In this document: positions 40,898-62,427 of the stretch, piece after piece | Position numbering within the stretch: position 1 is the stretch's first letter | How the letters are laid out: every line of letters starts with the position of its first letter | Assembly: GCA_037129835.1 (NCBI GenBank) | Contig: JBAXUE010000003.1 | Span: 87,275 to 151,274 of the forward strand | DNA: 64,000 nucleotides | Direction of reading: 5' to 3' | DNA from: a bacterium | Lineage (GTDB): Bacteria > Patescibacteriota > CPR2 > UBA1875 > CAIMLA01 | Made by a program: the position numbers and the translations under genes | Notes under the pieces: generated by a model | Databases searched by the model: none | The model's input: only the letters and a program-made list of their open reading frames with translations | Told to the model about the DNA's origin: nothing

Positions 40898-42577
40898 ATG
40901 AAGATGAAGAAACAAAAGATAAATATAAAGATACCTCGTTTAGGGATATTCTTTGGAATATTGACACTTACAGTCATTTTACTAATTACTTATTCGATAT
41001 TTTTATACTATCCGCTGAAACATGAGAGTATTGATAATATTTCATTAACGGGAGACTCGAATGTTTATAGATTGGAAAAAGGCATATTTCTCCAAGGTCA
41101 AAACGGCACAGCTATTGTGATACAGCCACTTACTTGGTGGCGGCTCGCCAAACTAGCGAATTTCTATTTGGCCGTAAAGTATGAACCGATTTTTATAGAT
41201 AGCAGTTTGTCCGAAAATGACTATCATGACGCGGTACAAAGTATTAGTGAAAATCAGGATAAAATAAAAAATTATTACAAGTTGAAGGAAGATTTTATTC
41301 CAACCGAATTTATGATGAATTTATACACCCTATCGGGAAAATACAAGAAATTCATAGATACACCTAGTGAGAAGCGAGCGGAAGAAATTTTAGATGATTA
41401 TGTAAAAGCAAACCAGGCATACTTGCAGAGCGCACAAAAACTAAAGAGTGTTGTGATAAGGGCCTTTCCAAAATCACAATCGCTCAATTTTATTAATTCT
41501 ATGTCTACAAGCGCTATTATAGAAAATAACATTGATATGATAATAATAAATTCAAGATCATTAGCCAAGGAAATCGACGATTTTAGGGGAGTTTTTTCCG
41601 GTTTACCACAGCTTAGTTACTATCCCAAAATATCACAAATCGCAGATGTGATTAAAGAAGATAATGCCCTGCTCCCGTTAGAAGATTTGGGGATAGCGGG
41701 TGGCATTACAACATCAGGTCCTTATCAGGTCGAGACAGGTTGTTTTGGTGGTGTTAATGAGCCTAAGTTATTTTATGTTAGAAATTTGCCTGATAAAAAT
41801 GGTGATAAGACATTTATCGCACCCAAATATGCAGAAAATAACTATTATTATTTACTCTCCTTAGAAGTTCCTGCGGAGGCTAAGCTTATTAGCCAGGGCT
41901 ACAAATACAAGCTAGCTAGAGAAACAAATACATACAAATGCAACGATTTGACATATCTGATCGATATTTTGTCGCTTGATGAATATAGACAGAATTATTC
42001 AGAAAAAATTCTCGGCGGTATCGATATATCTAGACCAGGATTTTCAAAAAAAGATTTAGAAATTATTAATAAAGCCCAAAAGGCTGAAGAAGTATTTTAT
42101 TCTGATAAAATTAAGCGCAGTGCCTCCTTGAAAAATCTTTCTAACGATTACTTCTTGGTTTATAAAGCTTTAAAGAATACCGACTACCCAGACAAGAGTC
42201 TGATAATAAATCTATTTACTCGTTATAGCTCAGTCCGAGGTGGCACAGTGGGTATTAGCAGAATCTTAAACACTAAGTTGTATCTCGAGCATTTGAATGA
42301 ATCATTATCGCTTGTCAGCGATAAGAAGACAGTCGATGAACGTTATATTAACGTTGCGCGTAGTGCTTATTCTTTGACATATTTTTCATATAGTCCATTT
42401 GTCTGGAAGCAGCCAAAGCCACTGCTATATCAATTAAATGTTAAATCGCCCACGAATCCAAGCCAAACGGATTATTTAACCTTGATCAAAAAAGTAGGTA
42501 GAGAAGAAATTCTTTCTTACCATGCCATTACGGAAGATACAGTTTTTGAGATACAAAAACAGAGCGTTAAAAACTAG
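40898..42577 (+). CDS. hypothetical membrane-anchored protein (559 aa)
   Basis: N-terminal TM helix (LGIFFGILTLTVILLITYSIFLYY) and a large extracytoplasmic region. No recognisable motif. Confidence 0.5.
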   Translation: MKMKKQKINIKIPRLGIFFGILTLTVILLITYSIFLYYPLKHESIDNISLTGDSNVYRLEKGIFLQGQNGTAIVIQPLTWWRLAKLANFYLAVKYEPIFIDSSLSENDYHDAVQSISENQDKIKNYYKLKEDFIPTEFMMNLYTLSGKYKKFIDTPSEKRAEEILDDYVKANQAYLQSAQKLKSVVIRAFPKSQSLNFINSMSTSAIIENNIDMIIINSRSLAKEIDDFRGVFSGLPQLSYYPKISQIADVIKEDNALLPLEDLGIAGGITTSGPYQVETGCFGGVNEPKLFYVRNLPDKNGDKTFIAPKYAENNYYYLLSLEVPAEAKLISQGYKYKLARETNTYKCNDLTYLIDILSLDEYRQNYSEKILGGIDISRPGFSKKDLEIINKAQKAEEVFYSDKIKRSASLKNLSNDYFLVYKALKNTDYPDKSLIINLFTRYSSVRGGTVGISRILNTKLYLEHLNESLSLVSDKKTVDERYINVARSAYSLTYFSYSPFVWKQPKPLLYQLNVKSPTNPSQTDYLTLIKKVGREEILSYHAITEDTVFEIQKQSVKN

Positions 42578-42798
42578 AAAAAATTATTACAGCCGACCCA
42601 TAGGCAGTCATTTTTAGGTGGCGATTTAGCCAGCTCCGCATTCTTTGTTTCTGCTGTTTTAATTTTTAATTCATTCTGTGCTATATAATAATTATTTATT
42701 CCAAAACCAACAAAAAAAAGTACCGTCAAAACTATTAGAAGAATAACGATCTTGTGTAATTTGTTAAATTTGTTTTTCCTGGTACTTGGTTCCCTCAT
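42574..42798 (-). CDS. small membrane protein
   Basis: 74 aa with one TM helix (IVILLIVLTVLFFVGFGI); convergent with the 40898 gene. Confidence 0.35.
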   Translation of the reverse strand: MREPSTRKNKFNKLHKIVILLIVLTVLFFVGFGINNYYIAQNELKIKTAETKNAELAKSPPKNDCLWVGCNNFF

Positions 42799-42917: not shown

Positions 42918-45900
42918 ATGAAACCTAAAAAGGCTTATTTCAAGTTTCAGAAGAAAGAAGCTATTATTAGACCGTCAAAAATCGGTTCTTTTAGTGTTCA
43001 TGATTACTTTATAAAAACACAACTATTTATTTTAGAAATATTTTCTAAGCTTCATCTGGTTTTGCGCAAGCCGCACGATCAGGCTTATAAAAATATTAAA
43101 ATTTATAAAAATTATAGTGACCACCCCGCTTCTGGACCGATAAATCGCTCGGTAGCAGCCGGTTTCGTAGCTTCATTGGCGATTTTCCTAACTTTGCAAT
43201 ATGTTGTTCCAAATCTCTTTGACACCTTTAAGCCAAATAAGGCAGAAGCTTCATCAACTTCAAAACAATGGACATTAGATACAGATTTTAACAATAACAC
43301 CCCCACAACTGGTGTCGCTACCAACAGAGTTCTTGCCGTTTTGCCGGGTACTTCTTCCGTAACACTCGGTTCAAAAACAGTTACAGGTACAGGTACTGAT
43401 TTTACCACTTCGGTTAATACATATTCACCGAAAGAGGTGGCGATAAATGGTATAAGCTACGCAGTTGCGTCTGTAGAAAGCAATACTTCTCTTACATTAC
43501 GGGATAACTATCCTACAGCCACTGCTTCTGGATTAGCCTTGAGCCACAAAAGTGATACTGCGCTTCTAGGTACAGCCACATTAGTATCTGGCTCAGCTGC
43601 AGTGGTTGGTGTTGGTACAAATTTTAACACCAGTGTCAAAAAATTTGCTTCACCAATATTGATTAGAATATCGGGTACGGCCTATACGGTTTCTACGGTA
43701 ACCGACGACACACATCTTACACTCAGTGCCAATTCTGCAGTTTCTGGAGCTGGGCTACCGATTAGTTACGATAATGCTGTTGTAGGTAACAACGCAGTAT
43801 CACTGCACTCAGGTCCCGTAGCAACGACCTTGACATACGGTCTTGGTGGAAATGTGGGCAAAACAACTGCCGGTACATATTCTCTAGCGGTACCAGCGGG
43901 CATCACTGGTTTTACTGTAGATATCAAGGGCGCTGGCGGCGGCGGTGATACCGGTGGAGGGGCGGCTGGTACTGCTGGCGGGGTGACAAAGCTGTCTTAT
44001 AGTACTTACGATGCGACTGCGAACAGCGGTAGCGGTACCGGAGTGGTTGGCACGGCAAGTATCAGCGGATTTACCGGTCTGACGGCTGTAAGCGGTCAAG
44101 GTAACGCAGGAGGAGCTGGCGGTTATGGCACACCTGTTTACTATGACGGCGGTTGTCAATATGATTCCTGCGATCAACCATATGGCTGCTGGGCTCCTTA
44201 TTGGGACTACGGACCACTAGGTGCTAGCGGTGGCGCTGGTGGTAGGATTACTGGCTCTATTACTACGGCGCAAGTCGCAGGGCAGACACTATCTGTCGTT
44301 GTTGGTGCGGGCGGTGGTGGATATACAGCTGGTTCGATCGGTACAATCGTCGTAACCTATTTCACCACTGGTTATAACAGTACTGGCACGCTTTCAGGCT
44401 TAAAGATTGACTCTGGATCTAATGTAAAATCCAAGTGGAACACAGTATCTTGGGTGGGGACAACTACTGGAGCAGGGACTAATCCTATAAAGTTTCGGAC
44501 CCGGGGCTCGAATATGGCAAGCCCAACCACAGTTACTGGAAGCGCTGATACTGGATGGACGTATTGGAATAATGATGCAACTAACGTAGCTTATTACACA
44601 AGTACGGGAGCAACACTAGTAACCATCCCAACTAGATGGCTAGAAATAGAAGCTACCTTGACCACATCGGATATTACTGTTACTCCATCTTTGACTGATT
44701 TTACGATAAATTATGATACCTTAGATGCTCCTACAAACCTTGCTCAATACAAGGCAGATACTACGACGGCTATCAGTGCTAACTATACTAACGAAACTAG
44801 CTTTGTCGCCAAGGCGAATCTGGGCGTGCCACTCAAAAATTCTACACCTATCACGCCTCAGTTTGAAATCCGAACCACCGATACTGGCTGGACTGGGGCA
44901 GTAGCAGTACCGGCTGGCGTTACAGCCACTCCTACTAGCATAGTCTACACATGTACTGTTGATCCTTGTGCTGCTCTGGGAGTCCAAACGGTTGGAACCA
45001 TCACTGGTCTAACAGCTGGGACTAGCTATTATTACCGAGTTCGCACTACAGATGCCACAGGTCGGGTGTCTGGTTGGAGTGCCAGCTCTTCTTTTGTAAA
45101 TCCAGATCAGGCAGCACCTACTATTATTGCCTTCGTCAATGATGGGACAAGTGCGGACATTATATATTCATCTTCTTTGTCTCAGCTTTCTGCGAACTGG
45201 GGTGCTTCCACAGATGCAATTTCTGGTTTACAAAAATATCAATATGCCATCGGCACTACATCTGGGGGCACGAATACATTGACATGGACGGACAATGGTA
45301 CGGCTACTGCAGTGACAAAAACTGGACTATCACTTGTAGAAGGAACTACATATTATTTCACTGTTAGGGCTGTCGACAATGTTGGTAACACAAGCTTAGT
45401 TACAACTTCAAATGGTCAGCTTGTGGATGTATCGTCTCCAACGGGAACAATATCTATTAAAGATACAGAGAGTCCTTATAGTGATAATTATTCCAATGCG
45501 AAGCTCGTTAAACTTATTTTGACACCAGTAGAAACAGGCTCGGGTATGAAAGATTTCCAACTGTCTAATGACGGTGTTACATGGGGAACGGCAACAAGTA
45601 CTTTGGGAGTAGTGACAAACTCAGGAACTTGGGGGACATGGAGTGATGCCTATAATTCGACCGGATTTAGCGGTTGGTATCTAAGCGGGGCAGACGGGTC
45701 GAAGTCGGTTTATGTAAAGTATCGAGATGTAGCTTTGAATGTTTCTGGAACTCAGGGATCATATTCCCCGACAGCTTCTACGTCATGGACCATTCCTAAT
45801 GGTATTGCATCAATCAATTTTACTTTCGTTGGGGCTGGTGGTGGGGGTTGTTATGGCCCTAGATATAAACATACTGGTACTAGTGGCGGCAATGGTGGAG

Positions 45901-48900
45901 ACTCAGGAATCACAATCGGCGCCAACATCTATAAGGCGCTAGGCGGCACGGGAGCGACAGGAGAATATGATAGTGATTGTGGTATAGGCACTGATGGTGG
46001 GACTTCTTTCCCGGCCGGTTTTGTTCCGACACAAAATGTTACAGGAGGCGCAGGCAACGGTGGTCCAAATCCGGGCGATGATTATTACGCAGGTGGCCCT
46101 GGTGGCGCCGGAGGTTTATTGGCGGGTACAATTGGTGTAAGTGGCGGCAGTGCTACTATTTCTGTTGGAGCCATGGGTTCTCCAAATGGTGGCGCTGGAT
46201 CGGTTTTGATAACTTATTCTCAAAATATATCAGCCACTACCACGCTTGATACTACGGCTCCAACGGCCGCTATCACTTATTCATTATCACGTAACGTGAA
46301 GACCGGTGATGTACAGCGCATTACTGCTACATTTAATGAAGATATACTAGCAGGTACTTTACCAAAAGTGGCTATATCTGGCTCAAATACACTTGCCGCT
46401 ACAGATATGGTTAGGACAGATGCCACTCACTATTATTATGACTACACCGTAGGAGCTGGCAATGGAGCGTCAACGATCGCTTTGAGCGTGGGAACTGATC
46501 TTGCCGGTAATGTGGTAACGTCAGCCCCAACATCTGGTGCAACCTTTACCGTTGACAATGTCCTGCCAACAATTACATCAGCTACTTCAACGACCGCTAA
46601 TGGCTATTACAAGGCCGCAAATATAGTAAATGTTACAGTAAATTTCTCTGAAATCGTGTCTTCAATAGGTAGTGTTACTGTCAACTTAGATTCAGGTGGC
46701 GCTTGTAGTTTTATAATTACGAATTCTAACAGCGGTAGCTGTAATTATACAGTCGGAGCGAGCGATAATAGCTCTGACTTGAATACTAGTTCCATCTCCG
46801 GAAATATCAAAGATTTGGCTTTAAATACCTTAACCAACTTCGCTCCAGCTGCTTCTTTAGCTTCATCGAAAGCAATAGTTATCGATACCACAGCCCCAAC
46901 GGCTGCTATCACTTATTCATTATCACGTAATGTGAAGACTGGTGATGTACAGCGCATTACTGCTACATTCAATGAAGCTATGTTAGTAGGTACTTTGCCA
47001 AAAGTTGCTATATCCGGCTCAAATACACTTGCCGCTACAGATATGGTCAGGACAGATGCCACTCACTATTATTATGACTACACCGTAGGAGCTGGCAATG
47101 GAGCGTCAACGATCGCTTTGAGCGTGGGAACTGATCTTGCCGGTAATGTGGTAACATCAGCCCCAACATCTGGTGCAACCTTTACAATCGATAATATTGT
47201 ACCGACTCTCACAACGGTGACGATAGCTTCGAATAACACCATAAACCATGTGGCCAAGATGGGTAATCAAATCACACTTACAATAGTGGCTAGTGAAAGT
47301 GTTACTACACCTACTGTTATAATTGCGGGGAACTCGGCGACCGTAACGGGTACAGGAACTAACTATTCCGCAGTTTATACTATGGTAAGTGGAGATACAC
47401 AAGGGACGGTGCTATTCTCTATTTCAGCTTTTCAGGATTCAGCACTCAATACAGGATCGGTTGTAAGCACGAATACAGGTGGTAACAACATCACTTACGA
47501 TAGAACAAACCCTGATCAAATAACTATTACCAGTGTTAGTCCCGCTACAAACAATACCGGAGAGCAGACTGTCACTTGGGCAGATTATACAGATTCCGCT
47601 CCAACTTCTGGTTTTGGTAAATATGTATTACAAAGAAAGAAATCAACAGATGTGGACTTCTCAGATATAAGTCCAAGCGTAGAGATAACAAGTCAATCGA
47701 CTCATACATATTTGGACCATATAGCTCAGTCTAGTAATAGCTCTGGCACTTATTACTATCGCGTTATCGCCTATGATAGAGCTGGTAATAGTAGTAATGG
47801 GGCTGCATCTCAGGCGGTTGTTATAGATAATCAGGCACCAGCCGGTACTTTGCACATTCTTGACACAGTTAATGGGACAGATCCAAAGGCGACAAAGAAC
47901 AGCACTGTAAACCTTTCTTTCATTCTTACAGATGATTATTCCGGAGTTTCTAGCTACTCTATAGATAATGGTGATGGAAATTGGTCGGAGTCTACAGATA
48001 TCTCTAGCGATGGCCTTAGCCATAGCGGTACTTATACTGGATGGGCTCTCGTAAACCCTAGCACCGAAGGAACTAAGACGGTACGAATAAAACTTGCCGA
48101 TAAGGCTGGAAATGAAGTAACCAACATCTCTCATACTATTATCCTAGATACTACTTCACCGGACAGCATTAGCTCAGTTGTTGCTTATAGTGACGATACT
48201 CAGGAAACATCAATCTCTGAAACTGGCGATAGCCTAGGATGGTACCCTTATACTGGCCCGAATTTTAAATTTATATCTTCGGATCAAGTATCTGGAATAA
48301 AAGAATTTAAGTATTGTATCTATCGCCCGTCTTCCGAGAGCTGTGATTATACGGCCAATTCAGCGGTATCGGCTAGCCAAATAAACAATTCGAAAAGCTA
48401 TACTGGCAATGTTACATTAGAGCTTACAGACTTTGGTAATAATAATATGCAGGGGGAATTGCTCTTTAAGGTAATCGGCGTAGATTATGTTGGTAAGACT
48501 AGTGCGCCGTCGACATATACTTACAAGTTTGATAATACAGTGCCAACTTATGTTAATAATTTTTCCGCTACCCAGGGCACCTATACTGACAAGATAGTCC
48601 TTACTTGGGACAAATCTTCAAATATTACCCCAGTCGCACCGATTGAAAAATATAAAATAGAGCGGGTTCAGTCGAGCTATTACAATGGAATCAACGACAG
48701 CGATTGGACTCAGTTTATAAATTATCAGAATATCACTTGTCAGACAGCTACACCTTATGTTTGTTTAGATAAAGATGGAGTCCAGGTCGGTAATATTAGT
48801 TTAGACGGGAGTAGTTATAAATTTGAGAATAAACCTGAGGTCGATGGTATATCGTCTACCTCTACCGATGCTTCTCTCTTGTCTTCAACTAAATATATTT

Positions 48901-51900
48901 ATCGTATCAGTGCAAAAGACTATTCAAATGAAGAGTATGGACCGGTGCCCGCGAATGGTAATCAAAATCAGTTCGAGGTTTATGGCTACACCAAAGATAC
49001 CGAGAGTCCAGGGGTTTTGCCAACAGATGTGACTGCAGTAACCTGTGACGGTGCAAGTGTTCTAGCTTGTAATGATGACCTGGCCATGAGGGGCAGAAGA
49101 GTTTATGTTAGCTGGGCACCAGCAGAAGATAATATCTCAGCAATAGATTATTACGATATTTATAGAAGAGAAGGTGGCCCTAATGATCTAAACGGCTGGG
49201 ATAAAGTCGGTACGCTACCAGAAACTACGGATAACGAATTTACAAAGAGGGTATTTTACGACGACACCGTCGTAGATGCGAAATCATATTCTTACCGTAT
49301 TGTTGCGGTTGATAAGGCTAGACCATTGCCAGCGAATGCGACTGAGATAGTCCCAGGCGGTATGATTGATAATATTGAAAACGCTACCCAATCGGCAGTA
49401 TATGTTTATGATATTACACCGCCAGTAGTGCCCACTTCGTTTACTGTTCAACCCAAAGGCATTGATTGCTTTGATGTCGAGTGTACTCCGAAACAGATGG
49501 TCGGTATTAGTTGGCAAGAAACGACGGATAATACTCCAAGCAATAATATTTCGTATGAGCTGTATCGATCATTGTCAGCGACCTCGGGCTTCGGAGAAGT
49601 GGCGGCGGCGGCAACCATCTCGCCAGACAATACAGGCAAGTATTTCTATGAAGACAAGGCCTTGGATGATAGGACTACATATTATTACTACCTCAGGGTT
49701 ATTGACGGTCATGAAAATAGCGCAAATACTACGGTTATGGTAGTTACCACTGGTAATAGTTCAGCACCAACACCACCAAAAGATGTTTTAGTTTCTAATA
49801 GTGATAGTTCACTTACAGATCAAGCACATCAGCTTAGGGTCAGCTTTGTCGGTAGTTATGCAAGAGGGTTTGATTCAGTCACTAAAGAAAACGGAATCGT
49901 AGGTTATGATTCGTACATCTCGCAAACAAATATTATACCTGATATGCTTCAAGACCCAACAGACGGTACTACGAATAACTGTATTGATAACGAAACCGCC
50001 GATGACTGTTGGATAAGAATAAATAATGCTACGGTTGCAAATACCCAGACCCTTACTACACCGATCGGAGACGATTCTCATATTGTTAGAGCGTTTACTG
50101 CCGCAAATCTTACAGAAACAACACAATATTATTTCCGCATTCGTGCAGTGGACAACGGAAAAAATATTGACGGTTCAGATGCACCTCTTAAGTCACTTTT
50201 TACAGCGGTAACGCCTCTAGTTAAAAAAAGTGGTGGCTGGGAGGTTACGCGCGATCTCACTGTACCGCCGCTTCCAACTGGAGGCCTAGAGGTGAAAGTT
50301 ACTAATACTCACCCAAATACCACAGTACTTCGCAACATCGTTACTTGGAAGATTCTTAGTGAAAAACCTTTAAGAAAGAAACTACCATTTGAAATAGCTT
50401 ATAACGCCACGACGAATCCAAAAGGTTGTAAAGCGGTAGCAGTAAACGGAGTAGACTACTGCAACGATTTTTATAGCTTTGAATTATATAGAGAGGTATT
50501 GGACGTAGATAATAATGTAATATACGAAAGTTCTACCCCGATAAAGACAGAAATTAATCCTGAGACAAACTTTTATATCGATGAGATAGGTAACACAGAT
50601 CTTATCGGTGGTACGGGTGATAGCTCATTCCTTATCGATGCCAAAATAAGATATTATGTTAAAGTCGTTGATAGTTCTATCTATAACTTCAACTACCCAG
50701 ATGGCACTAGTATCAATGCACTTCCAAACAAAACCGAGAGGCAAGATTCTGGATCCACTATTATTCCTGCCAAGTCGATACCAAGCATATTGGGTTTAGT
50801 CACGGTTTCTGACATTGGTGTTTCTTCGGCGACTGTTTCGTGGACGACCAATCAATCAACAGATGCCGTAGTTGAATTTCGGAAAAAGTATAAAAATGGT
50901 AACTCAGGGGAGTTAAATGACGGTACTTATCAGGTTATCGGAGAGAATAGTAACCCTGTTATACACGTAGAAACAGAAAATCATGCCGTACAAATGTTCG
51001 GCCTTCAAGCAGAGACTGAATATGATTATCGAGTTGTTTCAAAGAATTATTTGGCGAACACAGTTTATAGAAGTGGTAATGACGTGCCAACCTTAAAGAC
51101 TAAAGGATTCACCATCACCTATTTGCCGAATCGACTATCAACTACAACTGTATCTGCAGAACTACGTTGGTCTACCAATATGCCGTCAAATTCAAATATG
51201 GTTGAGTTTAGAGAAAGCAATGGGACACAAAACGGTGCAGTGGCTGAAACGCCACTAAAAACAGAGGAAGTTACTACTTGGGCAAAAAACTGTGAAGCGA
51301 ATCCAAACTCTCAGCTTTGCTCTCATTCGGTAATTATCTCTCCTTTAAAGAAAAGTACAGAGTATACAATAAATATAGTTTCTGTTTCTCTCGACAATTA
51401 TAATACAAGCTCTGGGCTTCAGAAATTTACGACTGCAAGCTCTGATTCTAAACAGTTTACGGTTAAGCCATCTGCTTCGAATGTCGCTGAAAGAAATATT
51501 ACTGCCACTTCGGCTCAAATAGTTTTCCAGACCGCAGAGAGCACAACTGCTACTCTTTACTATGATGTTGAGAGCGGTGCTCCAACCTATGAGCCAAAAG
51601 ATTATAAGCTTACTGCTACAGACGCATTGAATAGCACTACTCATCAGATCCTCGTCGATGGACTCGAGCCGGGCAAAAAATATTATTATATTGTAAAGGT
51701 TGATAATGGGCTTCTTTCCTACACTTCCCCAGAGTCTTCGTTTACTGCGGTTCTAAAACCAAAAATATCAAATCTTAAAGTAGCCGAAGTAAAGCCATAC
51801 TCATTCCAGGTTACCTGGGAAACAAATATTGATACTGAAACGCTCATCAATTTAGGTGCGGGCTCGGCAAACTATAGCGAGAAAAGAGGCAAGCCCGGAC

Positions 51901-52451
51901 TAGTTAAGAGTCACGACCTCATGGTTGATCAACTTACTGATAACACAGAGTATCATTATCAGATATTAGCCAAAGATGACACTGGCAATGAAGTTGCCTC
52001 TAGTGACTCTATTATAAGAACACCACTAGATACAGAGGGGCCAAAGATATCTGGCGTAAAAGTAGATATCTTACCAATGGGAGAAAATGATACCAAGTCT
52101 TCGGTAATCATTTCCTGGATAACTGACAAGCCAGCCACCACCTTGGTAGAGTATGACAAAGGTGTCATCGGCGGCGATTATGGCAACCGTTCTGTAGAAG
52201 ATACTTCTCTTAATAATTCACACACCGTTATCATTAAGGGTCTTGATCCCGCTGCTTCCTATCACTATCGTATTATTTCCAAGGATAAACGAAATAATAT
52301 TACTGAATCACAGGATTATACGTTTGTTACGCCTAGTAGAGAAAAATCTATCTTACAGCTTATACTTAAATCATTTGAAGAAACATTTGCTTGGACCCAG
52401 AGATTAAACGAGTTTTTTGGGAGTTTGGGCAAGAGATTTGCCGGAAAGTAA
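42918..52451 (+). CDS. giant cell-surface protein (3177 aa): N-terminal membrane anchor, Thr/Ser/Gly-rich Ig-like repeats, Gly-rich modules, C-terminal FN3-like repeats
   Basis: Uninterrupted 9.5-kb ORF. TM helix VAAGFVASLAIFLTL near the N-terminus, so the true start may be a non-ATG codon downstream of 42918. Repeated domain boundaries of the form (V/I)DxTAPT/VDNxxP. GGxGG-rich blocks at ~43.9-44.3 kb and ~45.8-46.2 kb. Tandem ~90-100-aa FN3-like units in the last ~2 kb (e.g. VSWTTNQSTDAVVEF...YDYRV). Confidence 0.85.
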   Translation: MKPKKAYFKFQKKEAIIRPSKIGSFSVHDYFIKTQLFILEIFSKLHLVLRKPHDQAYKNIKIYKNYSDHPASGPINRSVAAGFVASLAIFLTLQYVVPNLFDTFKPNKAEASSTSKQWTLDTDFNNNTPTTGVATNRVLAVLPGTSSVTLGSKTVTGTGTDFTTSVNTYSPKEVAINGISYAVASVESNTSLTLRDNYPTATASGLALSHKSDTALLGTATLVSGSAAVVGVGTNFNTSVKKFASPILIRISGTAYTVSTVTDDTHLTLSANSAVSGAGLPISYDNAVVGNNAVSLHSGPVATTLTYGLGGNVGKTTAGTYSLAVPAGITGFTVDIKGAGGGGDTGGGAAGTAGGVTKLSYSTYDATANSGSGTGVVGTASISGFTGLTAVSGQGNAGGAGGYGTPVYYDGGCQYDSCDQPYGCWAPYWDYGPLGASGGAGGRITGSITTAQVAGQTLSVVVGAGGGGYTAGSIGTIVVTYFTTGYNSTGTLSGLKIDSGSNVKSKWNTVSWVGTTTGAGTNPIKFRTRGSNMASPTTVTGSADTGWTYWNNDATNVAYYTSTGATLVTIPTRWLEIEATLTTSDITVTPSLTDFTINYDTLDAPTNLAQYKADTTTAISANYTNETSFVAKANLGVPLKNSTPITPQFEIRTTDTGWTGAVAVPAGVTATPTSIVYTCTVDPCAALGVQTVGTITGLTAGTSYYYRVRTTDATGRVSGWSASSSFVNPDQAAPTIIAFVNDGTSADIIYSSSLSQLSANWGASTDAISGLQKYQYAIGTTSGGTNTLTWTDNGTATAVTKTGLSLVEGTTYYFTVRAVDNVGNTSLVTTSNGQLVDVSSPTGTISIKDTESPYSDNYSNAKLVKLILTPVETGSGMKDFQLSNDGVTWGTATSTLGVVTNSGTWGTWSDAYNSTGFSGWYLSGADGSKSVYVKYRDVALNVSGTQGSYSPTASTSWTIPNGIASINFTFVGAGGGGCYGPRYKHTGTSGGNGGDSGITIGANIYKALGGTGATGEYDSDCGIGTDGGTSFPAGFVPTQNVTGGAGNGGPNPGDDYYAGGPGGAGGLLAGTIGVSGGSATISVGAMGSPNGGAGSVLITYSQNISATTTLDTTAPTAAITYSLSRNVKTGDVQRITATFNEDILAGTLPKVAISGSNTLAATDMVRTDATHYYYDYTVGAGNGASTIALSVGTDLAGNVVTSAPTSGATFTVDNVLPTITSATSTTANGYYKAANIVNVTVNFSEIVSSIGSVTVNLDSGGACSFIITNSNSGSCNYTVGASDNSSDLNTSSISGNIKDLALNTLTNFAPAASLASSKAIVIDTTAPTAAITYSLSRNVKTGDVQRITATFNEAMLVGTLPKVAISGSNTLAATDMVRTDATHYYYDYTVGAGNGASTIALSVGTDLAGNVVTSAPTSGATFTIDNIVPTLTTVTIASNNTINHVAKMGNQITLTIVASESVTTPTVIIAGNSATVTGTGTNYSAVYTMVSGDTQGTVLFSISAFQDSALNTGSVVSTNTGGNNITYDRTNPDQITITSVSPATNNTGEQTVTWADYTDSAPTSGFGKYVLQRKKSTDVDFSDISPSVEITSQSTHTYLDHIAQSSNSSGTYYYRVIAYDRAGNSSNGAASQAVVIDNQAPAGTLHILDTVNGTDPKATKNSTVNLSFILTDDYSGVSSYSIDNGDGNWSESTDISSDGLSHSGTYTGWALVNPSTEGTKTVRIKLADKAGNEVTNISHTIILDTTSPDSISSVVAYSDDTQETSISETGDSLGWYPYTGPNFKFISSDQVSGIKEFKYCIYRPSSESCDYTANSAVSASQINNSKSYTGNVTLELTDFGNNNMQGELLFKVIGVDYVGKTSAPSTYTYKFDNTVPTYVNNFSATQGTYTDKIVLTWDKSSNITPVAPIEKYKIERVQSSYYNGINDSDWTQFINYQNITCQTATPYVCLDKDGVQVGNISLDGSSYKFENKPEVDGISSTSTDASLLSSTKYIYRISAKDYSNEEYGPVPANGNQNQFEVYGYTKDTESPGVLPTDVTAVTCDGASVLACNDDLAMRGRRVYVSWAPAEDNISAIDYYDIYRREGGPNDLNGWDKVGTLPETTDNEFTKRVFYDDTVVDAKSYSYRIVAVDKARPLPANATEIVPGGMIDNIENATQSAVYVYDITPPVVPTSFTVQPKGIDCFDVECTPKQMVGISWQETTDNTPSNNISYELYRSLSATSGFGEVAAAATISPDNTGKYFYEDKALDDRTTYYYYLRVIDGHENSANTTVMVVTTGNSSAPTPPKDVLVSNSDSSLTDQAHQLRVSFVGSYARGFDSVTKENGIVGYDSYISQTNIIPDMLQDPTDGTTNNCIDNETADDCWIRINNATVANTQTLTTPIGDDSHIVRAFTAANLTETTQYYFRIRAVDNGKNIDGSDAPLKSLFTAVTPLVKKSGGWEVTRDLTVPPLPTGGLEVKVTNTHPNTTVLRNIVTWKILSEKPLRKKLPFEIAYNATTNPKGCKAVAVNGVDYCNDFYSFELYREVLDVDNNVIYESSTPIKTEINPETNFYIDEIGNTDLIGGTGDSSFLIDAKIRYYVKVVDSSIYNFNYPDGTSINALPNKTERQDSGSTIIPAKSIPSILGLVTVSDIGVSSATVSWTTNQSTDAVVEFRKKYKNGNSGELNDGTYQVIGENSNPVIHVETENHAVQMFGLQAETEYDYRVVSKNYLANTVYRSGNDVPTLKTKGFTITYLPNRLSTTTVSAELRWSTNMPSNSNMVEFRESNGTQNGAVAETPLKTEEVTTWAKNCEANPNSQLCSHSVIISPLKKSTEYTINIVSVSLDNYNTSSGLQKFTTASSDSKQFTVKPSASNVAERNITATSAQIVFQTAESTTATLYYDVESGAPTYEPKDYKLTATDALNSTTHQILVDGLEPGKKYYYIVKVDNGLLSYTSPESSFTAVLKPKISNLKVAEVKPYSFQVTWETNIDTETLINLGAGSANYSEKRGKPGLVKSHDLMVDQLTDNTEYHYQILAKDDTGNEVASSDSIIRTPLDTEGPKISGVKVDILPMGENDTKSSVIISWITDKPATTLVEYDKGVIGGDYGNRSVEDTSLNNSHTVIIKGLDPAASYHYRIISKDKRNNITESQDYTFVTPSREKSILQLILKSFEETFAWTQRLNEFFGSLGKRFAGK
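46251..46550 (+). repeat. intragenic repeat copy 1 (~300 bp) inside the giant gene
   Basis: ~95% nucleotide identity to 46886-47186. It encodes TAPTAAITYSLSRNVKTGDVQRITATFNE...VTSAPTSGATFTVDN. Confidence 0.85.
46886..47186 (+). repeat. intragenic repeat copy 2 (~300 bp) inside the giant gene
   Basis: Near-identical to copy 1, with an in-frame 636-bp period. The intervening domain, and the domain following copy 2, are divergent. Confidence 0.85.
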
Positions 52452-55289: not shown

Positions 55290-56324
55290 ATGGGTCTTTT
55301 CTTTAATAACAATGATTTTGTAGGAATCGAAATAGGAAATACCGCAATCCGTTTAGTTCAGCTTCGGTTGGTCGGGAAAAAGTATACTTTAATTTCTTTT
55401 GGCTCAGCACAGTTACCGCCAAAAATCGTTCAAAGCGATAGCAAGCTCGATATGCAGAAGGTTGCAGCTATTATTCAGCAGTTAGTAAAGTCATCTAAGG
55501 TCACAACTAAAAATGTCGCAACTGCTCTTCCTGCTTCTGCGGTATTCTCATTTATCGCAAAGATGCCACCGATGTCTCATGCCGAGTTAGAAAATGCTAT
55601 CAGATACCAAGCAGAACAAAATATTCCTCTGAAAATCGAAGATGTAAGAATAGATTGGCAAGTGATTCGAGAAAATCCAACAACTCATGAGACAGCAGTT
55701 ATGGTTGTCTCTGCGCCCAATAAAAACGCTTCAAGACTCCTCGAAATATTCAACATGGCAGATATGAATGTTATATTTCTTGAAACAAATTCTATCGCCA
55801 ATTCTAGGTCACTATCAAATCTGAATGATCCAATTGTGATGATTGTCGATATCGGAGCCGCCACAACAGAGATCACTATCGTTGAGAATAGTGTAGTTTC
55901 TCACGTGCGTAGTGTTTCTTCGGGCGGATACGCCTTTACTAGAGCTATTTCGCAAGGTCTGGGTTTGGACATTACCCAAGCCGAACAATTCAAACAAAAG
56001 TTTGGCATGTCGCAAGATAAGCTAGAGGGACAAGTATATAAGACACTAAAGCCTTTTGTCGGAAATATAACAGATGAGATACGAAGATCGATGAAATACT
56101 ATTATGAACAATTCGGAACCTCGGTACAAAAGATAGTTTTGACTGGTGGTAGTTCTCGCATGCTATTACTAGCAGAAAATATAAAAAATACATTAAATGT
56201 TGAAGTTACCTTTGGCAATCCGTGGATAAATGTAAAGGCTCAGCCCGAAGTAGTAGCGAAATTAAATGACATAGCCCCAGAGTTCGCTACAGTTGTCGGT
56301 CTTGCCATGAGAGATAACAAGTGA
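55290..56324 (+). CDS. pilM: type IV pilus assembly protein PilM (actin-like ATPase fold)
   Basis: GIEIGNTAIRLVQL N-terminus and an FtsA/actin-like fold; first gene of the pilMNO block. Confidence 0.85.
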   Translation: MGLFFNNNDFVGIEIGNTAIRLVQLRLVGKKYTLISFGSAQLPPKIVQSDSKLDMQKVAAIIQQLVKSSKVTTKNVATALPASAVFSFIAKMPPMSHAELENAIRYQAEQNIPLKIEDVRIDWQVIRENPTTHETAVMVVSAPNKNASRLLEIFNMADMNVIFLETNSIANSRSLSNLNDPIVMIVDIGAATTEITIVENSVVSHVRSVSSGGYAFTRAISQGLGLDITQAEQFKQKFGMSQDKLEGQVYKTLKPFVGNITDEIRRSMKYYYEQFGTSVQKIVLTGGSSRMLLLAENIKNTLNVEVTFGNPWINVKAQPEVVAKLNDIAPEFATVVGLAMRDNK

Positions 56325-56893
56325 AAATCAATTTAATCCCAGAGATTAGACAAGAGCAAGTCAGGATACAAAAGACAAATGCCCTTGTCACAATGATAGC
56401 CATTATTCTGGCGGTAGTTTTGGGGGCGATAATTTTACTTCTAAGTGGAATGTTTCTAGCTAGAATGGCACAGGCCAATCAGTACAACGCTTCAATTACA
56501 CAAATAAATAAGAATATTAAGTCTCAAGCTGCATTAGAAAAAACGGTAATAGATGTTTCAAAAGGCATCCAAGATGTAAAAAGTATTTTAGGAACAGATA
56601 ATAAATGGAAGAATTTTTTTAGTGATCTCGAAAAAGCAACCCCTGGAGATGTTAGATTCAAATCGCTTAGTATTACGTCAGACGGCAAGGCCTCTGCCGA
56701 AATGGAAGCAAGAGATGTTACTTCATTGGACCGATTTCTTACGTCTTTTTCAACGTATAAACGAAAAGACCTAGTTACAAATACTGATAAAAATAATTTA
56801 TTTTCAGACGTAGTGGTAGCAGGCTATAATGTGGATGATACAGGTAAAATAAATTTTTCTGCTACTTTCTTAGTAAATTTAAAGGAACTATAA
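56321..56893 (+). CDS. pilN: PilN-like bitopic pilus assembly protein
   Basis: Short cytoplasmic N-terminus (INLIPE), a single TM helix and a periplasmic domain. Overlaps the pilM stop. Confidence 0.6.
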   Translation: MKINLIPEIRQEQVRIQKTNALVTMIAIILAVVLGAIILLLSGMFLARMAQANQYNASITQINKNIKSQAALEKTVIDVSKGIQDVKSILGTDNKWKNFFSDLEKATPGDVRFKSLSITSDGKASAEMEARDVTSLDRFLTSFSTYKRKDLVTNTDKNNLFSDVVVAGYNVDDTGKINFSATFLVNLKEL

Positions 56894-57481
56894 GTGGATA
56901 TAGAATTCGATAAAGAAATATTTAATCATTATAAATACGCGATTATTACGGGCCTTGCTGCTTTTTTTATATTCATTTTTACAGTATTTATTATCATCAT
57001 CCCACTGTATCAAACCGCGAGTGCAAAAGCCAAAGAGGCAGAAGCGGCATTGGTTTTACTAAAGGAAACACAAGAAAAAGAAGCTGTTTTAAATAACCTT
57101 AAAAGCCAAGGAGATGAACTTAAAAAGACTTCCGAGCTTCTTGCTACCGCCCTACCGATATCTAATGATGTCGGGCCTCTCTTTATCCAGCTTAGCGCGC
57201 TGATAGTCCAAAACGGCGGTAAGGTTAAAGGGATTGCCGGTGCAGCGGGTAATGAACTGGTTGCAACAACAACCGAGCAAATAACTTCGATGGTAAATCT
57301 AAACAAGTATACGTATGTTCTACCAATAGAATTTAGTAGCTATAGTAAGCTCAAGACTTTTATCGATGATGCGAAGCAGGCATTGCGCTTGATAGAAATC
57401 AGTAGTATTACGATATCTTCATCAGATAAAGAAAAAATAAACGCAACGATAACGGTAGTTACATATACTAGGAGCAAATAA
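56894..57481 (+). CDS. pilO: PilO-like bitopic pilus assembly protein
   Basis: TM helix, a coiled-coil and a periplasmic domain. GTG start abutting pilN. Confidence 0.55.
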   Translation: MDIEFDKEIFNHYKYAIITGLAAFFIFIFTVFIIIIPLYQTASAKAKEAEAALVLLKETQEKEAVLNNLKSQGDELKKTSELLATALPISNDVGPLFIQLSALIVQNGGKVKGIAGAAGNELVATTTEQITSMVNLNKYTYVLPIEFSSYSKLKTFIDDAKQALRLIEISSITISSSDKEKINATITVVTYTRSK

Positions 57482-57754
57482 ATGAAAAAAAAGGACATAA
57501 TAACATTGGCAGTTAGTGGAGTAATACTGATTGGTTGCGCGGTATTTGTGATAATGGTATTTTTTCCTTCTTTTGGTCTCAACCCCAGTGCTACAGTAGA
57601 AACAAAAACGGTAACAAGCCAGACAAAAATAACCGAAGAGGCGATAAATAGTCAAGAAAGCAAAGATGTAATAAATAAAATAAATGAATTAAAAAAATAT
57701 GGCGAAACAGATTTGGATAATATCGGTCGGCCCAACCCTTTTGGGCCATTATAG
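57482..57754 (+). CDS. small membrane-anchored protein in the pilus operon (PilP-position)
   Basis: 90 aa with an N-terminal TM helix; sits between pilO and pilB. Confidence 0.4.
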   Translation: MKKKDIITLAVSGVILIGCAVFVIMVFFPSFGLNPSATVETKTVTSQTKITEEAINSQESKDVINKINELKKYGETDLDNIGRPNPFGPL

Positions 57755-57773
57755 ATTGACGGAGTGATAATAA

Positions 57774-59537
57774 ATGCTTGTTAAGGACGAAAACAAATTT
57801 CTAGACACTTTGATCGAGTTGAACTTGGTAACTCGAGAGCAGACAGAGCTAGTAAAAATAGAAAGTGCCAGGAGCGGTAACAACTATGAAGACGTACTTG
57901 TTGATCTTAAGTTACTGGGTGAAGAAGATATCGTCAAGGCAGAAGCTATAGCGGCGGGATTGGCGTATGTCAACTTAGCAAACTTCAAATTGCCAATAGA
58001 ACTACAGAAAGATGTAAGTAAAGAGATCGCTACCAAATATACTGCGGTGCCATTTGGCTTCACGGGCGAAGTTCTCAATGTCGCTATGGTTGACCCGAAT
58101 GATGTCCAGGCACTTGAGTTTATAGAAAAGAAAAGTGGTTTTCATGTACAGCCTTATCTTGCTTCGGAAACAGGCGTTAGTGGTGTTATTGGCCAATACG
58201 AGGATGCGGCGGATGAGGTATCAGAGGCACTGCAAAACTATGACACCGAGGCGGTTCCAAAGACAGAAGCCGTAGACCCAGAAGCTGGTGATCTTATCCA
58301 AGATGCGCCAGTTACTAGGGCGGTTAACACGATTATCGAATACGCCGCTAGGGCAAAGGCTTCAGATATCCATATTGAACCCAGAGAAAAAACAGTTAAA
58401 GTGAGGTATCGCATAGATGGTATCTTGCACGAAACCATGGATTTGCCGATTCATATTCATACAGCACTAGTTTCTAGGATAAAAATACTATCAAATCTGA
58501 AGATTGATGAGCATCGCATACCTCAAGACGGCCGTTTTGGCACCACAGTGGATAAGAGGCCTATTGATATGCGTATTTCTATATCTCCGACTGTATTTGG
58601 TGAAAAGGTTGTAATCCGTCTTCTTGATAAATCGGCGGGAGTTATCACTCTAGATAAGCTTGGAGTCCGCGGGCGCGCTTTTAAGATTATCGAGGCAGGA
58701 GCATTGAGACCTCATGGAATGGTGCTTTCGACAGGGCCTACCGGTTCTGGTAAGTCTACTACGCTCTATGCACTGCTAACAGTAATGAATAAGCCCGATG
58801 TAAACATTATTACCTTAGAGGATCCAGTTGAGTATCAGGTAGATGGAGTAAACCAAATCCAGGTGAACACAGCGGTTGGGCTCACCTTTGAATCTGGGCT
58901 ACGCTCTATATTGCGTCAAGATCCGGATGTAATCATGGTTGGTGAGATACGCGATGTACAAACTGCTGGCCTTGCTGTCCAGTCTGCTCTTACGGGGCAT
59001 ACCGTACTGTCGACTCTACATACCAATAGTGCAGCTGGTGTACTCCCAAGACTTCTTGATATGGAGATAGAGCCTTTTTTGATAGCTTCAACTGTCAGCA
59101 CCGTTATCGGTCAAAGGCTAGTTAGGAAGATTTGTGATGATTGTAAGGAGCAATACGAAGCCTCGCCAGCAGTCGTAGACAGTATTAAGAAGGCCCTTGA
59201 GGGGCTGTTGCCTAGTCATACTGGGCAGACAATGTCTCCCGAAGAATCTGGTTACAAGGATTTACCATTTGTCGAAGATGATACATTTCCACTATATAGA
59301 GGAAAAGGATGCCCCACTTGTAACAATAGTGGATACAAAGGTCGTGTCGGTATCTACGAAGTATTTGCCGTTAGCGACCGCTTAGAAAAGCTCATTGTCG
59401 GTCATGCCACTAGCTCAGAGATACAAGAAGTGGCCGTAAAAAACGGGATGGTTACGATGAGACAAGATGGATTTTTGAAGGCTTTAGAAGGCATCACTAC
59501 GATTGAAGAGGTTATTTCTAAAGCGACAGAAGACTAG
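57774..59537 (+). CDS. pilB: type IV pilus assembly (extension) ATPase PilB/GspE
   Basis: N-terminal T2SSE_N domain, Walker A LSTGPTGSGKSTTL, Asp box, His box, and a tetracysteine CxxC...CxxC zinc motif. Confidence 0.95.
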   Translation: MLVKDENKFLDTLIELNLVTREQTELVKIESARSGNNYEDVLVDLKLLGEEDIVKAEAIAAGLAYVNLANFKLPIELQKDVSKEIATKYTAVPFGFTGEVLNVAMVDPNDVQALEFIEKKSGFHVQPYLASETGVSGVIGQYEDAADEVSEALQNYDTEAVPKTEAVDPEAGDLIQDAPVTRAVNTIIEYAARAKASDIHIEPREKTVKVRYRIDGILHETMDLPIHIHTALVSRIKILSNLKIDEHRIPQDGRFGTTVDKRPIDMRISISPTVFGEKVVIRLLDKSAGVITLDKLGVRGRAFKIIEAGALRPHGMVLSTGPTGSGKSTTLYALLTVMNKPDVNIITLEDPVEYQVDGVNQIQVNTAVGLTFESGLRSILRQDPDVIMVGEIRDVQTAGLAVQSALTGHTVLSTLHTNSAAGVLPRLLDMEIEPFLIASTVSTVIGQRLVRKICDDCKEQYEASPAVVDSIKKALEGLLPSHTGQTMSPEESGYKDLPFVEDDTFPLYRGKGCPTCNNSGYKGRVGIYEVFAVSDRLEKLIVGHATSSEIQEVAVKNGMVTMRQDGFLKALEGITTIEEVISKATED

Positions 59538-59597
59538 GCATAGAGTTAACAATCCAAAATATATATGATATTCTAGATAAAGAAAATAGGAGGGTCA

Positions 59598-60662
59598 ATG
59601 GTAGAACTTAAAATAGAGAATCTGCTCGAGGAAGTGGTTACGAAACATGCTTCGGATTTGCATATCTCGGTAGGGGTACCACCGATGTTTAGGATAGACG
59701 GTGCCTTGGTCCCCGCAGATGACATGGGACCGCTTGCATCAGCAGATGTAGAAAAAATAGTATATTCCGTGATGGATGATATACAGAAAGATATACTCGA
59801 AAAAGACAAAGAAGTTGACTTTTCTTTTTCATTTGGAGATGTGGCAAGATTTCGTGCAAATGCCTTTCATCAAAAAGGAAATCTGGGTTTGGCTCTGAGA
59901 ATTATTCCCAACAATATCCTTACTTTATCTGAGCTTGGCATGCCACCCATCATAGAGCAATTCGCTAATATTCCCCGGGGCCTAGTGCTAGTAACTGGAC
60001 CGACAGGTTCGGGGAAGTCTACTACTCTGGCTGCAATGGTAGATAAGATAAACACAGAAAAAAGCGTCCACATTATTACGATTGAAGATCCAATCGAATA
60101 TACCCACTCACACAAAAAAGCACTTATTGACCAGAGAGAAGTCCATTATGATACTAGGTCTTTTGGTGCTGCGCTACGGAGTGCACTTCGTGAAGATCCA
60201 GATGTTGTTCTTATTGGTGAGATGAGAGACCTAGAGACTATCTCTGCCGCTATCACAATCGCAGAAACGGGACATCTTGTTTTGGCAACACTGCATACAA
60301 ATACTGCCGCCCAATCTATAGACCGTATGATTGACGTATTTCCTCCATATCAGCAACAACAAGTACGTGTTCAGCTTTCAAACATTTTGCAGGGTGTCGT
60401 CTCACAAAGGCTGATACCTGCCATTGGTGGTGGTCGTCTTGCGGCTGCAGAAATCATGGTTGTTTCGCCGGCAGTTAGAAATATTATACGAGAAGGCAAG
60501 ACACATCAGTTAGATGCCGTTATCCAAACTAGCGCGGATCAGGGCATGATCCAAATGGACAAGTCTTTGGTAAATTTAGTAAATTCTGGTTCAATAACTG
60601 CAGAAGAGGCGCATGGATATTGTGTTGACCCCCATGAGTTTGATAGACAACTTCATGGCTAG
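59598..60662 (+). CDS. pilT: type IV pilus retraction ATPase PilT
   Basis: Walker A VTGPTGSGKSTTL, HIITIEDPIEY, and the PilT C-terminal AIRNIIREGK-type motif. ~350 aa without the GspE N-terminal domain. Confidence 0.93.
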   Translation: MVELKIENLLEEVVTKHASDLHISVGVPPMFRIDGALVPADDMGPLASADVEKIVYSVMDDIQKDILEKDKEVDFSFSFGDVARFRANAFHQKGNLGLALRIIPNNILTLSELGMPPIIEQFANIPRGLVLVTGPTGSGKSTTLAAMVDKINTEKSVHIITIEDPIEYTHSHKKALIDQREVHYDTRSFGAALRSALREDPDVVLIGEMRDLETISAAITIAETGHLVLATLHTNTAAQSIDRMIDVFPPYQQQQVRVQLSNILQGVVSQRLIPAIGGGRLAAAEIMVVSPAVRNIIREGKTHQLDAVIQTSADQGMIQMDKSLVNLVNSGSITAEEAHGYCVDPHEFDRQLHG

Positions 60663-60670
60663 GAGCTAGA

Positions 60671-61873: not shown

Positions 61874-61928
61874 TTGACATACGATATAGTATATATATAA
61901 TAATTATTAGAAATATATAGGAGGGGAT

Positions 61929-62417
61929 ATGAATAAAATAAGCAAAACAGCTCAAAAAATGGGTTTCACTCTAGCAGAACTTATGGTAGTAATAGCACTC
62001 ATGGCAGTGCTTGGGACACTGATAGCCGGAGCTATACGGCTCGCATCAGATAAAGCAAAGGTCACAGCTCATCAAACAAACGCAAAAATGATTATTGCCG
62101 CTCTCGAAGACGGAAATTCAAAGTTTAGAGTATTCTGTGGCACCAATATGCCCACTTGCAGTGCTACTACCGCTTTGACTACCATTGGGACAGGGACTCA
62201 AGTATCTTTTACGGCAGCCGCTAAATCTATGGGACTTGAAGCTAGACTAACTCAAACTTCTGAATGTTCAGGCACAACTGCTGGCGGTGGCGTAATAGCT
62301 GCTGATAGTTATAGGTATTATGTATTAACTGCTGACGCAGCATGTACAAAGAAAATTAATGGCGCAGTCTTTGGAGATACAGTCATAGACCCAGTCAATG
62401 ATACTATTAACTTCTAA
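61929..62417 (+). CDS. pilA: type IV (major) pilin with a class III signal peptide
   Basis: KMG|FTLAELMVVIALMAVLGT: Gly at -1, Phe at +1, Glu at +5. Strong RBS ggaggggat. Confidence 0.85.
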   Translation: MNKISKTAQKMGFTLAELMVVIALMAVLGTLIAGAIRLASDKAKVTAHQTNAKMIIAALEDGNSKFRVFCGTNMPTCSATTALTTIGTGTQVSFTAAAKSMGLEARLTQTSECSGTTAGGGVIAADSYRYYVLTADAACTKKINGAVFGDTVIDPVNDTINF

Positions 62418-62427
62418 ATTATATATA

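Follow-up and report, generated by a model that had tools for sequence, protein, structure and literature searches.

Giant membrane proteins have been proposed as adhesins in Vampirococcus, a Candidate Phyla Radiation (CPR) bacterium (PMC8080830); in Southlakia a protein with fibronectin type III (FN3) domains is among the envelope proteins essential in co-culture, and the authors speculate that host glycans are targeted (PMC10633639); for Nanosynbacter, 'close-proximity adhesins' have been proposed to act after pilus tethering (PMC12206443). Polyglycine-rich 'brush' domains have been described as antireceptor modules of phages, thought to touch lipid-rich or glycan surfaces (PMC13243192, PMC13252515, PMC13243795), and in the F2-pyocin an OB-like (oligonucleotide/oligosaccharide-binding-like) N-terminal domain docks the side fibre (PMC13455828). 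Here we describe a giant gene, encoding 3177 residues, within a 64,000-nt stretch of bacterial DNA (contig JBAXUE010000003.1 of assembly GCA_037129835.1, positions 87,275 to 151,274; hereafter the window). Giant CPR surface proteins have already been described, and the points of interest in the present one are its phage-type brush and side-fibre modules and the pattern in which its head and stalk have been conserved.

Our analyses establish the integrity of this gene, the architecture of its product, the homology of its domains, their pattern of conservation and the synteny of the locus. What we infer beyond these is exposure of the protein at the cell surface, which of its ends is attached, a ligand belonging to a host cell, and binding through the brush domains. 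On balance we think it probable that this is a fibrillar surface protein, laid out as a modular adhesin, which binds the envelope of another cell through its head; we favour a surface fibre binding in this way because the layout fits that of fibrillar adhesins and because the closest relatives of the head modules are found on phage tail tips. A preliminary description of the locus had named the protein, in the event that the cell is an episymbiotic member of the CPR, the prime host-attachment candidate, and this proposal gains strength from the finding of phage-type brush domains in the very part that differs between orthologues. A host-attachment role is plausible and the protein a reasonable candidate for it, yet the proposal still reaches beyond what was observed.

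The comparisons draw on three related proteins. The first, P0058 (NCBI MEI6267021.1; 3219 aa, annotated as a 'fibronectin type III domain-containing protein'), aligns colinearly with the giant protein over its full length at 49% identity. The second is encoded by an open reading frame (ORF) at 4358–12034 (2558 aa) in L001, the sole related locus in a scan of GTDB (one genome per species), and matches residues 1–134 at 37% identity and residues 1391–3177 at 53%, residues 135–1390 being replaced by different modules. The third, P0060 (2638 aa), is a partial relative that shares head modules. L001 lies in a metagenome-assembled genome titled 'uncultured Candidatus Saccharibacteria bacterium' and has the same gene order as the window; the cell is thus very probably a member of the Saccharibacteria, which bears out the earlier supposition that it belongs to the CPR. 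Identity to P0058 peaks at residues 51–100 (82%), 2451–2600 (78–90%) and 3101–3150 (82%), and is lowest at residues 151–300 and 1100–1600. The stalk modules and the 37-aa tail keep one order across the window protein, P0058 and L001, the colinearity of the stalk starting at residue 1538 in L001 and one module later (residue 1646) in P0058. The head (residues ~135–1530) differs in module content between orthologues: that of P0058 has three brush domains in another arrangement, and that of L001 has no module of the PF21722 type. An exhaustive search of representative proteins with residues 1–1200 gave 3369 matches, nearly all through a common FN3-like module (residues 730–845); among them the head modules are carried only by P0058 and P0060, the other 148 listed relatives having only FN3/Ig-type (immunoglobulin-type) repeats in common.

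As judged from these alignments, the protein consists of four parts: a conserved N-terminal export segment, a variable head, a colinear stalk of ~14 FN3/Ig modules and a conserved amphipathic tail. The N-terminal motif, the ~14-module colinear stalk and the tail (..SILQ(L/M)ILKS.E.TFAWT..) are common to the window protein, P0058 and the L001 protein, which form a small, uncharacterised orthologue group of Saccharibacteria. Looked up by exact sequence, neither the window protein nor P0058 had a record. Word-indexed protein searches with residues 1–140 and 2436–2640 gave no match in an index that lacks P0058 (80–90% identical in the latter segment), and hence do not signify absence; a search with residues 281–560, which also gave no match, was swamped by 8000 Gly-word candidates. 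Where the giant protein has its PF21722-type brush domains, the head of the L001 protein (4715–6760, residues ~120–800) contains another kind of Gly-rich segment (..INADGKGYAGGAAEGNGQGTGGGAGG..), resembling a beta-helix by eye, and after it comes the RYLEI-type domain shared with its relatives; Pfam gives only an Ig_Rha78A_N hint there.

The reading frame, given in the preliminary description as a single 9.5-kb ORF of 3177 aa, is just that: the ORF list and the translation show 3177 codons with no internal stop. The product, roughly 330 kDa in size, is rich in Thr (13%), Ser (10.5%) and Gly (9%). The same description had doubted the annotated start, noting that no Met lies between residue 1 and the transmembrane (TM) helix and that the upstream part is lysine-rich. 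Both observations are correct, there being no further Met until residue 533 and nine Lys among the first 50 residues; the doubt itself is not supported by the comparison of orthologues. The protein begins with MKPKKAYF, its counterpart in P0058 with MKPRKAQF and that in L001 with MKARKTH, that is, the MKP(K/R)KA start is conserved in P0058 and largely so in L001. R18-P19 and F25-S26-V27 are invariant across all three, and the motif that precedes the helix (Table 1) is well conserved in P0058 and partly in L001. The conservation of the pre-helix residues among orthologues speaks for their translation, and the annotated start is itself conserved. On this comparative evidence the gene appears to encode a real, intact, exported, multi-module Ig/FN3-rich giant protein.

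The head contains two glycine-rich blocks. The preliminary description had reported these with similar lead-ins, and a Cys cluster following the first; we find the lead-ins YSLAVPAGITGFTVDIKGAGGGG (residues ~321–343) and WTIPNGIASINFTFVGAGGGG (residues ~957–977), and the Cys cluster CQYDSCDQPYGCW at residues 413–425, at the positions given in that description. As far as profile, motif and modelled fold allow, both blocks are divergent PF21722 (Gly_rich_2) 'brush' domains. When the two were aligned with three modules of P0058 and two of P0060 (n=7), six of the seven matched PF21722 at E <= 1 (best E 8.9e-9); the seven align along their whole length, and the link to the family is a transitive one. 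Each has the lead-in ..VP.G....V.(I/L).G(A/G)GGGG, glycine-rich segments and a closing G.(I/V)...Y strand, with an invariant P, G-x-GGG and later Gly columns. Modelled alone by AlphaFold2 (AF2) with the seven-module alignment, block 2 reached a mean predicted local distance difference test score (pLDDT) of 85.6 and a predicted template-modelling score (pTM) of 0.82. Block 1 modelled together with the next domain gave an overall pLDDT of 60.9, with 80–94 in the block-1 core and poor values in the Cys-rich loop and the next domain, and a PDB search with this mixed model returned no significant match.

Searched against the PDB with Foldseek, the block 2 model found 9d93_Qa and 9d93_Qb in first and second place (E 4.3e-4 and 1.5e-3, probability 1.0, query-normalized template-modelling score, TMq, 0.5). 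Chain Q of 9D93 is gp33 of mycobacteriophage Bxb1, named 'Tail wing brush', which is itself a PF21722 member (E 1.2e-11) and whose lead-in QVPEGASGCWVTLGGAGGGGGS aligns with those found here by hhalign. Among the viral structures of BFVD there were 30 matches at E <= 1e-3 (best E 2.6e-8, TMq 0.73), many of them named 'Glycine-rich domain-containing protein', 'tail fiber repeat protein' or 'Gp38'. In DSSP assignments on the block 2 model the Gly-rich segments are neither helix nor strand, compatible with polyproline II (PPII) helices. The likeness to the phage brush proteins comprises a common lead-in (..VP.G....V.(I/L).GAGGGG) followed by glycine-rich segments, a profile link and the best structural match in both the PDB and the viral structure library; the Salmonella phage S16 adhesin gp38 is functionally related to these domains. 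In contrast to the phage proteins, the domain occurs here twice inside a 3177-aa cellular protein, not as a small virion protein, and copy 1 carries a Cys-rich insertion. This loop is shared with module a of P0060 and in part with module b of P0058, is absent from the other modules, and has an AF2 pLDDT <50.

No close viral relative of the brush domains was found by sequence in a scan of viral contigs, tblastn of brush domain 1 against GenBank phages gave no match, and a scan of metagenomes with the alignment of brush and next domain yielded one weak fragment. The later Foldseek matches of block 2 in the PDB (TNF-like lectins, the glycine-rich domains of ALK/LTK and the receptor-binding head of a lactococcal phage) are not significant. 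Several ALK/LTK chains are among them, and like block 2 the ALK/LTK TG supradomain combines a TNF-like beta-sandwich with glycine-rich segments; we rejected an assignment to that family (PF12810), since the isolated blocks give no Pfam match to it at E <= 10 and the structural matches stay at E 0.06–0.1 and a TM-score of ~0.23, and regard it as at best a distant fold relative of block 2.

Ahead of the first brush domain, the head carries two tandem units similar to the OB-like domain at the N-terminus of the side fibres of phages and pyocins (Table 1). They are repeats of one another (residues 126–235 against 196–312: 36% identity, E 8e-13), and with phmmer against the PDB the first copy (residues ~143–207) matches the phage distal tail protein gp20 (23gd_B, E 8e-5) and the F2-pyocin side fibre (25ve_A, E 5e-4). 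The similarity, over ~65 residues, is one of sequence. The F2-pyocin fibre PyoF13 (PDB 25ve) uses this domain to attach to the central fibre (PMC13455828); in the giant protein, which is cellular, it is present twice, one copy behind the other, close to the N-terminus.

The order of the parts invites a second comparison. The fibrillar adhesins of Gram-positive bacteria of the MSCRAMM type (microbial surface components recognizing adhesive matrix molecules) have a signal peptide, a variable ligand-binding N-terminal region, a repeated stalk and a C-terminal wall anchor. The giant protein shows the same order of export signal, variable head, conserved repeat stalk and conserved C-terminal element; unlike them it lacks LPXTG, a C-terminal TM helix and a basic tail, and has an amphipathic helix instead. 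No LP.[TSA][GAN] motif occurs anywhere in the protein and it has no hydrophobic C-terminal stretch, so that it is not an LPXTG adhesin. Nor does it have the marks of an RTX (repeats-in-toxin) or BAP (biofilm-associated protein) giant adhesin, containing a single GGxGxD (residue 990), no RTX family in Pfam, and an N-terminal export segment. It resembles the giant proteins of other CPR bacteria (Vampirococcus lugosii, PMC8080830; SEML1_0890 of Southlakia epibionticum, PMC10633639) in lifestyle group, size, predicted membrane or surface location and FN3/adhesion-type modules; that likeness is one of description, and the present protein belongs to a narrow orthologue set with an N-terminal motif and a C-terminal tail of its own.

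How the protein might be held at the cell depends on its two ends. The preliminary description spoke of an N-terminal anchor, and a single strongly hydrophobic helix is present (Kyte–Doolittle maximum 2.04 over 19 residues; the one other stretch above 1.6, at 1.62, lies in a Ser/Ala-rich segment). Permanence of the anchor is less clear: because all three orthologues keep an (A/V)-x-A sequence downstream (AEA in the window protein, VEA in P0058, ARA in L001), the 'anchor' may be a long signal peptide that is cleaved. Were the chain cut at this site, the head would become free, and attachment would fall to the tail or to something else. The tail REKSILQLILKSFEETFAWTQRLNEFFGSLGKRFAGK is confined to these three proteins; its helical hydrophobic moment is 0.4–0.5, around the 99th percentile (0.42) of the giant protein. 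It is not a TM helix, contains no LPXTG or other recognized sorting signal, and may serve in docking or at the membrane surface. We suggest that the basic N-terminal stretch and the hydrophobic helix would direct the chain through the membrane via the Sec pathway, that the helix would stay as an anchor or be cut at the conserved A-x-A, and that the stalk would hold the head at a distance from the cell. Binding of a component of the partner cell's envelope may then fall to the brush domains, as is thought for phage tail tips, and exchange of head modules between lineages could retune what is bound.

Several points weigh against a host-binding fibre of this kind. Whereas gp33 is a clear member of PF21722, both blocks score below the curated Pfam cut-off of 24.3 bits (block 1, 18.7 bits, E 0.002; block 2, 9.6 bits, E 1.1). 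In local alignment with one another they give z = 3.1, a score reached by 7 of 1000 shuffles and modest beyond composition (block 2 against gp33 gives z = 4.8 under composition-controlled shuffling); because the pure sequence signal is modest, the brush assignment rests on profile, motif and fold combined. Phage brush domains are themselves only presumed to bind lipids or glycans (PMC13243795, PMC13252515), and the pattern of a swappable head is drawn from three sequences, two full orthologues and one partial relative. A permanent N-terminal anchor, moreover, would place the variable head by the membrane, maybe partly inside the wall, an odd position for a host-binding tip.

This last point leads to another reading, which we hold to be unlikely, namely that the protein is a structural element of the envelope, a wall-spanning spacer or part of a surface coat that would shape or guard the epibiont's own surface, with no specific host ligand, and that its brush and jelly-roll modules bind the cell's own wall or membrane. 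Module turnover falls in the part with phage receptor-binding-type domains, which fits diversifying recognition better than a housekeeping structure, and Pfam and NCBIfam scans of the whole protein found no SLH (surface-layer homology), S-layer or wall-binding domain, so that it does not qualify as an SLH-type S-layer protein. In favour of a structural role, it is the stalk and tail that are conserved, as expected for self-assembly or a scaffold; with a permanent anchor the head would adjoin the cell's own membrane; and the fibrous appearance of the surface of one CPR cell has been connected with giant proteins (PMC8080830).

The position of the gene raises the question of an association with type IV pili. 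The preliminary description placed it next to pilus and transporter genes, and these do adjoin on both sides; an operon link does not exist, as a 147-aa gene and ychF on the opposite strand intervene. Upstream lie genes for an ATP-binding cassette (ABC) ATPase, a permease and a binding protein, an opposite-strand AMP-binding enzyme and a 559-aa protein; downstream, the 147-aa gene and opposite-strand YchF are followed by PilM, two PilN/O-like proteins, PilB, PilT, PilC and PilD. L001 has the matching order of binding protein, AMP-binding enzyme, 544-aa unknown, giant gene and PilM/N/O/B, its neighbouring proteins being mostly 35–72% identical to those of the window and two at 24–28% (range 24–72%). 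Within the window the gene sits ~2.8 kb upstream of pilM, its placement in L001 is equivalent, and the protein might accordingly be pictured as an accessory of the pilus, a pilus-associated adhesin or a docking partner with PilM/N/O. We consider this very unlikely, because no operon is shared, the YchF/147-aa pair is inverted in L001 with a 937-aa gene inserted, the protein has no class III (prepilin) signal at its N-terminus and no PilY1-type domain, and synteny may merely reflect genome collinearity between relatives; nor is the protein itself a pilus component by these marks.

More improbable still is that the protein carries a polymer-degrading enzyme or a toxin, the catalytic or toxic part having diverged too far to be recognized. 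The points in its favour are weak, sub-threshold matches, to Ntox24 (E 0.086) and, on FN3-like regions, to exoglucanase CbhB (E 3e-4; 18.9 bits, the cut-off being 1950 bits); Pfam, NCBIfam and PHROGs contain no catalytic or toxin family that matches at threshold and none of an intracellular enzyme (PHROGs has no family for the protein at all), and beta-rich binding or spacer modules account for the whole length. Least credible of all is an assembly artefact or pseudogene, mis-joined repeats or several fused genes, for although a near-identical internal repeat of 300 nt could mislead an assembler, a 9.5-kb open frame at 39–47% G+C cannot arise by chance, the protein is colinear over its full length with the 3219-aa P0058 from another assembly, its C-terminal 1800 aa match L001, and the G+C content at third codon positions (GC3) agrees with the rest of the window.

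Table 1. Positions (nt, in the window) of the giant gene and of the segments of its product
Feature	Position	Strand	Basis
Giant surface-protein gene, 3177 aa	42918..52451 (incl. stop codon)	+	Single ORF; colinear with P0058
Basic N-terminal region, aa 1-77, predicted cytoplasmic; KPHDxAYKNIKIYKxYxDHPASGPINRS	42918..43148	+	Conservation
Only strongly hydrophobic helix, aa 78-98; putative signal-anchor or signal-peptide h-region	43149..43211	+	Kyte-Doolittle
(A/V)-x-A, aa 109-111; possible signal peptidase I site	43242..43250	+	Conserved in three orthologues
Two ~75-90-aa repeats, aa 138-212 and 213-300, like the phage/pyocin side-fibre N-terminal OB-like domain	43329..43817	+	
Putative Gly-rich 'brush' domain 1 (PF21722-like), aa 313-485	43854..44372	+	Pfam Gly_rich_2, AF2
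Cys-rich insertion loop in brush domain 1, aa 403-433, incl. CQYDSCDQPYGCW	44124..44216	+	Alignment of modules
Beta-rich domain, aa 486-603, ending ...RWLEIEATL...TPSLTDFTINY	44373..44726	+	Recurs in orthologues
Two FN3-like modules (aa 604-729, 730-842) and one Ig-like module (aa 843-946)	44727..45755	+	Local hidden Markov model (HMM)
Putative Gly-rich 'brush' domain 2, aa 947-1104	45756..46229	+	AF2, Foldseek
Four Ig-like modules with DTTAP / VDNxxP boundaries, aa 1109-1528	46242..47501	+	Local HMM
First part of stalk, seven FN3/Ig-like modules, aa 1538-2435	47529..50222	+	Module map
Hyper-conserved module, aa 2436-2625	50223..50792	+	Identity to P0058
C-terminal array of five FN3 modules, aa 2626-3140	50793..52337	+	Pfam; colinear in orthologues
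Amphipathic C-terminal tail, 37 aa (aa 3141-3177), REKSILQLILKSFEETFAWTQRLNEFFGSLGKRFAGK	52338..52448	+	Conserved in P0058, L001

The remaining modules of the head and those of the stalk are of the beta-rich kinds listed in Table 1. The RWLEI-type domain that follows brush domain 1, which also follows the Gly-rich domains of P0058, P0060 and L001, has no Pfam match and was modelled by AF2 with low confidence; a jelly-roll fold is our guess for it. Pfam Ig_Rha78A_N matches residues 697–726, and Ig_J_second residues 2208–2268. The DxTAP/VDNxxP boundaries claimed earlier recur at residues 1110, 1212, 1322, 1424, 1636, 1743 and 1871. Among the four Ig-like modules after brush domain 2, modules 1 and 3 (46248–46547 and 46884–47183) are 95% identical in nucleotide sequence, with 15 synonymous and 6 non-synonymous codon differences, which points to a recent duplication or gene conversion. 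The modules between these near-identical copies have diverged, and the repeat (46248–47183) is a place where an assembler could miscount copies.

The first part of the stalk is colinear module for module between the window and L001, P0058 having no match to residues 1538–1642. The module after it stands out by its conservation (78–90% identity to P0058 against 49% overall; found in L001 at E 7.7e-66), is FN3-like by eye with a Cys-bracketed insert CKAVAVNGVDYC, has no Pfam match, and showed no relatives beyond the orthologues in the word index, which lacks P0058. For the C-terminal array, Pfam matches at residues 2628–3140 comprise fn3 (84.7 bits, cut-off 25), Pur_ac_phosph_N (89 bits in 5 stretches) and PhoD_N, that is, FN3 modules (PF00041, PF16656/PF16655) in tandem. 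The FN3-like array that had been placed in the last ~2 kb is thus present, as five modules over ~1.5 kb; 'dozens' of Ig-like modules slightly overstated their number, as we count ~24 globular modules.

GC3 along the giant gene is 0.30–0.40, the same as in other genes of the window, and the rise in G+C at 44–46 kb comes from codon positions 1 and 2 (Gly and Ala codons); a recent foreign origin of this GC-rich segment was considered and rejected, since the excess lies in Gly/Ala codons and GC3 is as elsewhere. Scans for promoters and terminators gave background levels only.

The window otherwise represents an ordinary housekeeping chromosome, with genes for DnaG, RpoD, PolA, FtsK, PNPase, RNase J, ribosomal protein S6 and EF-P, and no tRNA or Rfam element was found in it. 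The type IV pilus assembly set (55290–63359) is apparently complete and comprises PilM, two PilN/O-like proteins, a 90-aa ORF, PilB, PilT, PilC, a 162-aa ORF and PilD; the 162-aa ORF has no family and is possibly a pilin, and PilD is the prepilin peptidase. The 937-aa gene of L001 (13786–16599), located between the YchF pair and pilM and absent from the window, has a SurA_N-like N-terminal domain. On the other side of the giant gene, the 559-aa protein (40898–42577, + strand) has an N-terminal membrane helix and no Pfam family. Its counterpart in L001 (2679–4313, 544 aa) is 24% identical over ~530 aa. In both genomes the gene stands next to the giant gene on its upstream side, and its product may be a partner of the giant protein. 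The 340-nt AT-rich gap before the giant gene contains a 74-aa ORF (42574–42798, - strand) with one hydrophobic helix; L001 does not conserve this ORF, its gap at that place measuring only 45 nt.

Finally, taking the giant protein as a fibrillar adhesin that binds through its head, we put forward the further proposal, which we regard as rather doubtful in its full form, that Saccharibacteria hold a cellular counterpart of the phage tail fibre, with a conserved stalk and an exchangeable phage-type head, in which swaps of the head would set the host envelope that is recognized and host range would evolve by the logic of phage cassettes. Host recognition by ultrasmall CPR epibionts is largely obscure beyond type IV pili, and the giant protein offers a concrete target for dissection, its two brush domains (residues 313–485 and 947–1104) being small, well-delimited units for study. 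The contrast between head and stalk lets one ask across Saccharibacteria genomes whether the content of the head varies with the identity of the host. Should the phage-like modules not bind a host envelope, the protein would be one more large FN3-rich surface protein of a sort common in CPR genomes; if they do, the recognition strategies of phages and of episymbionts would be linked.

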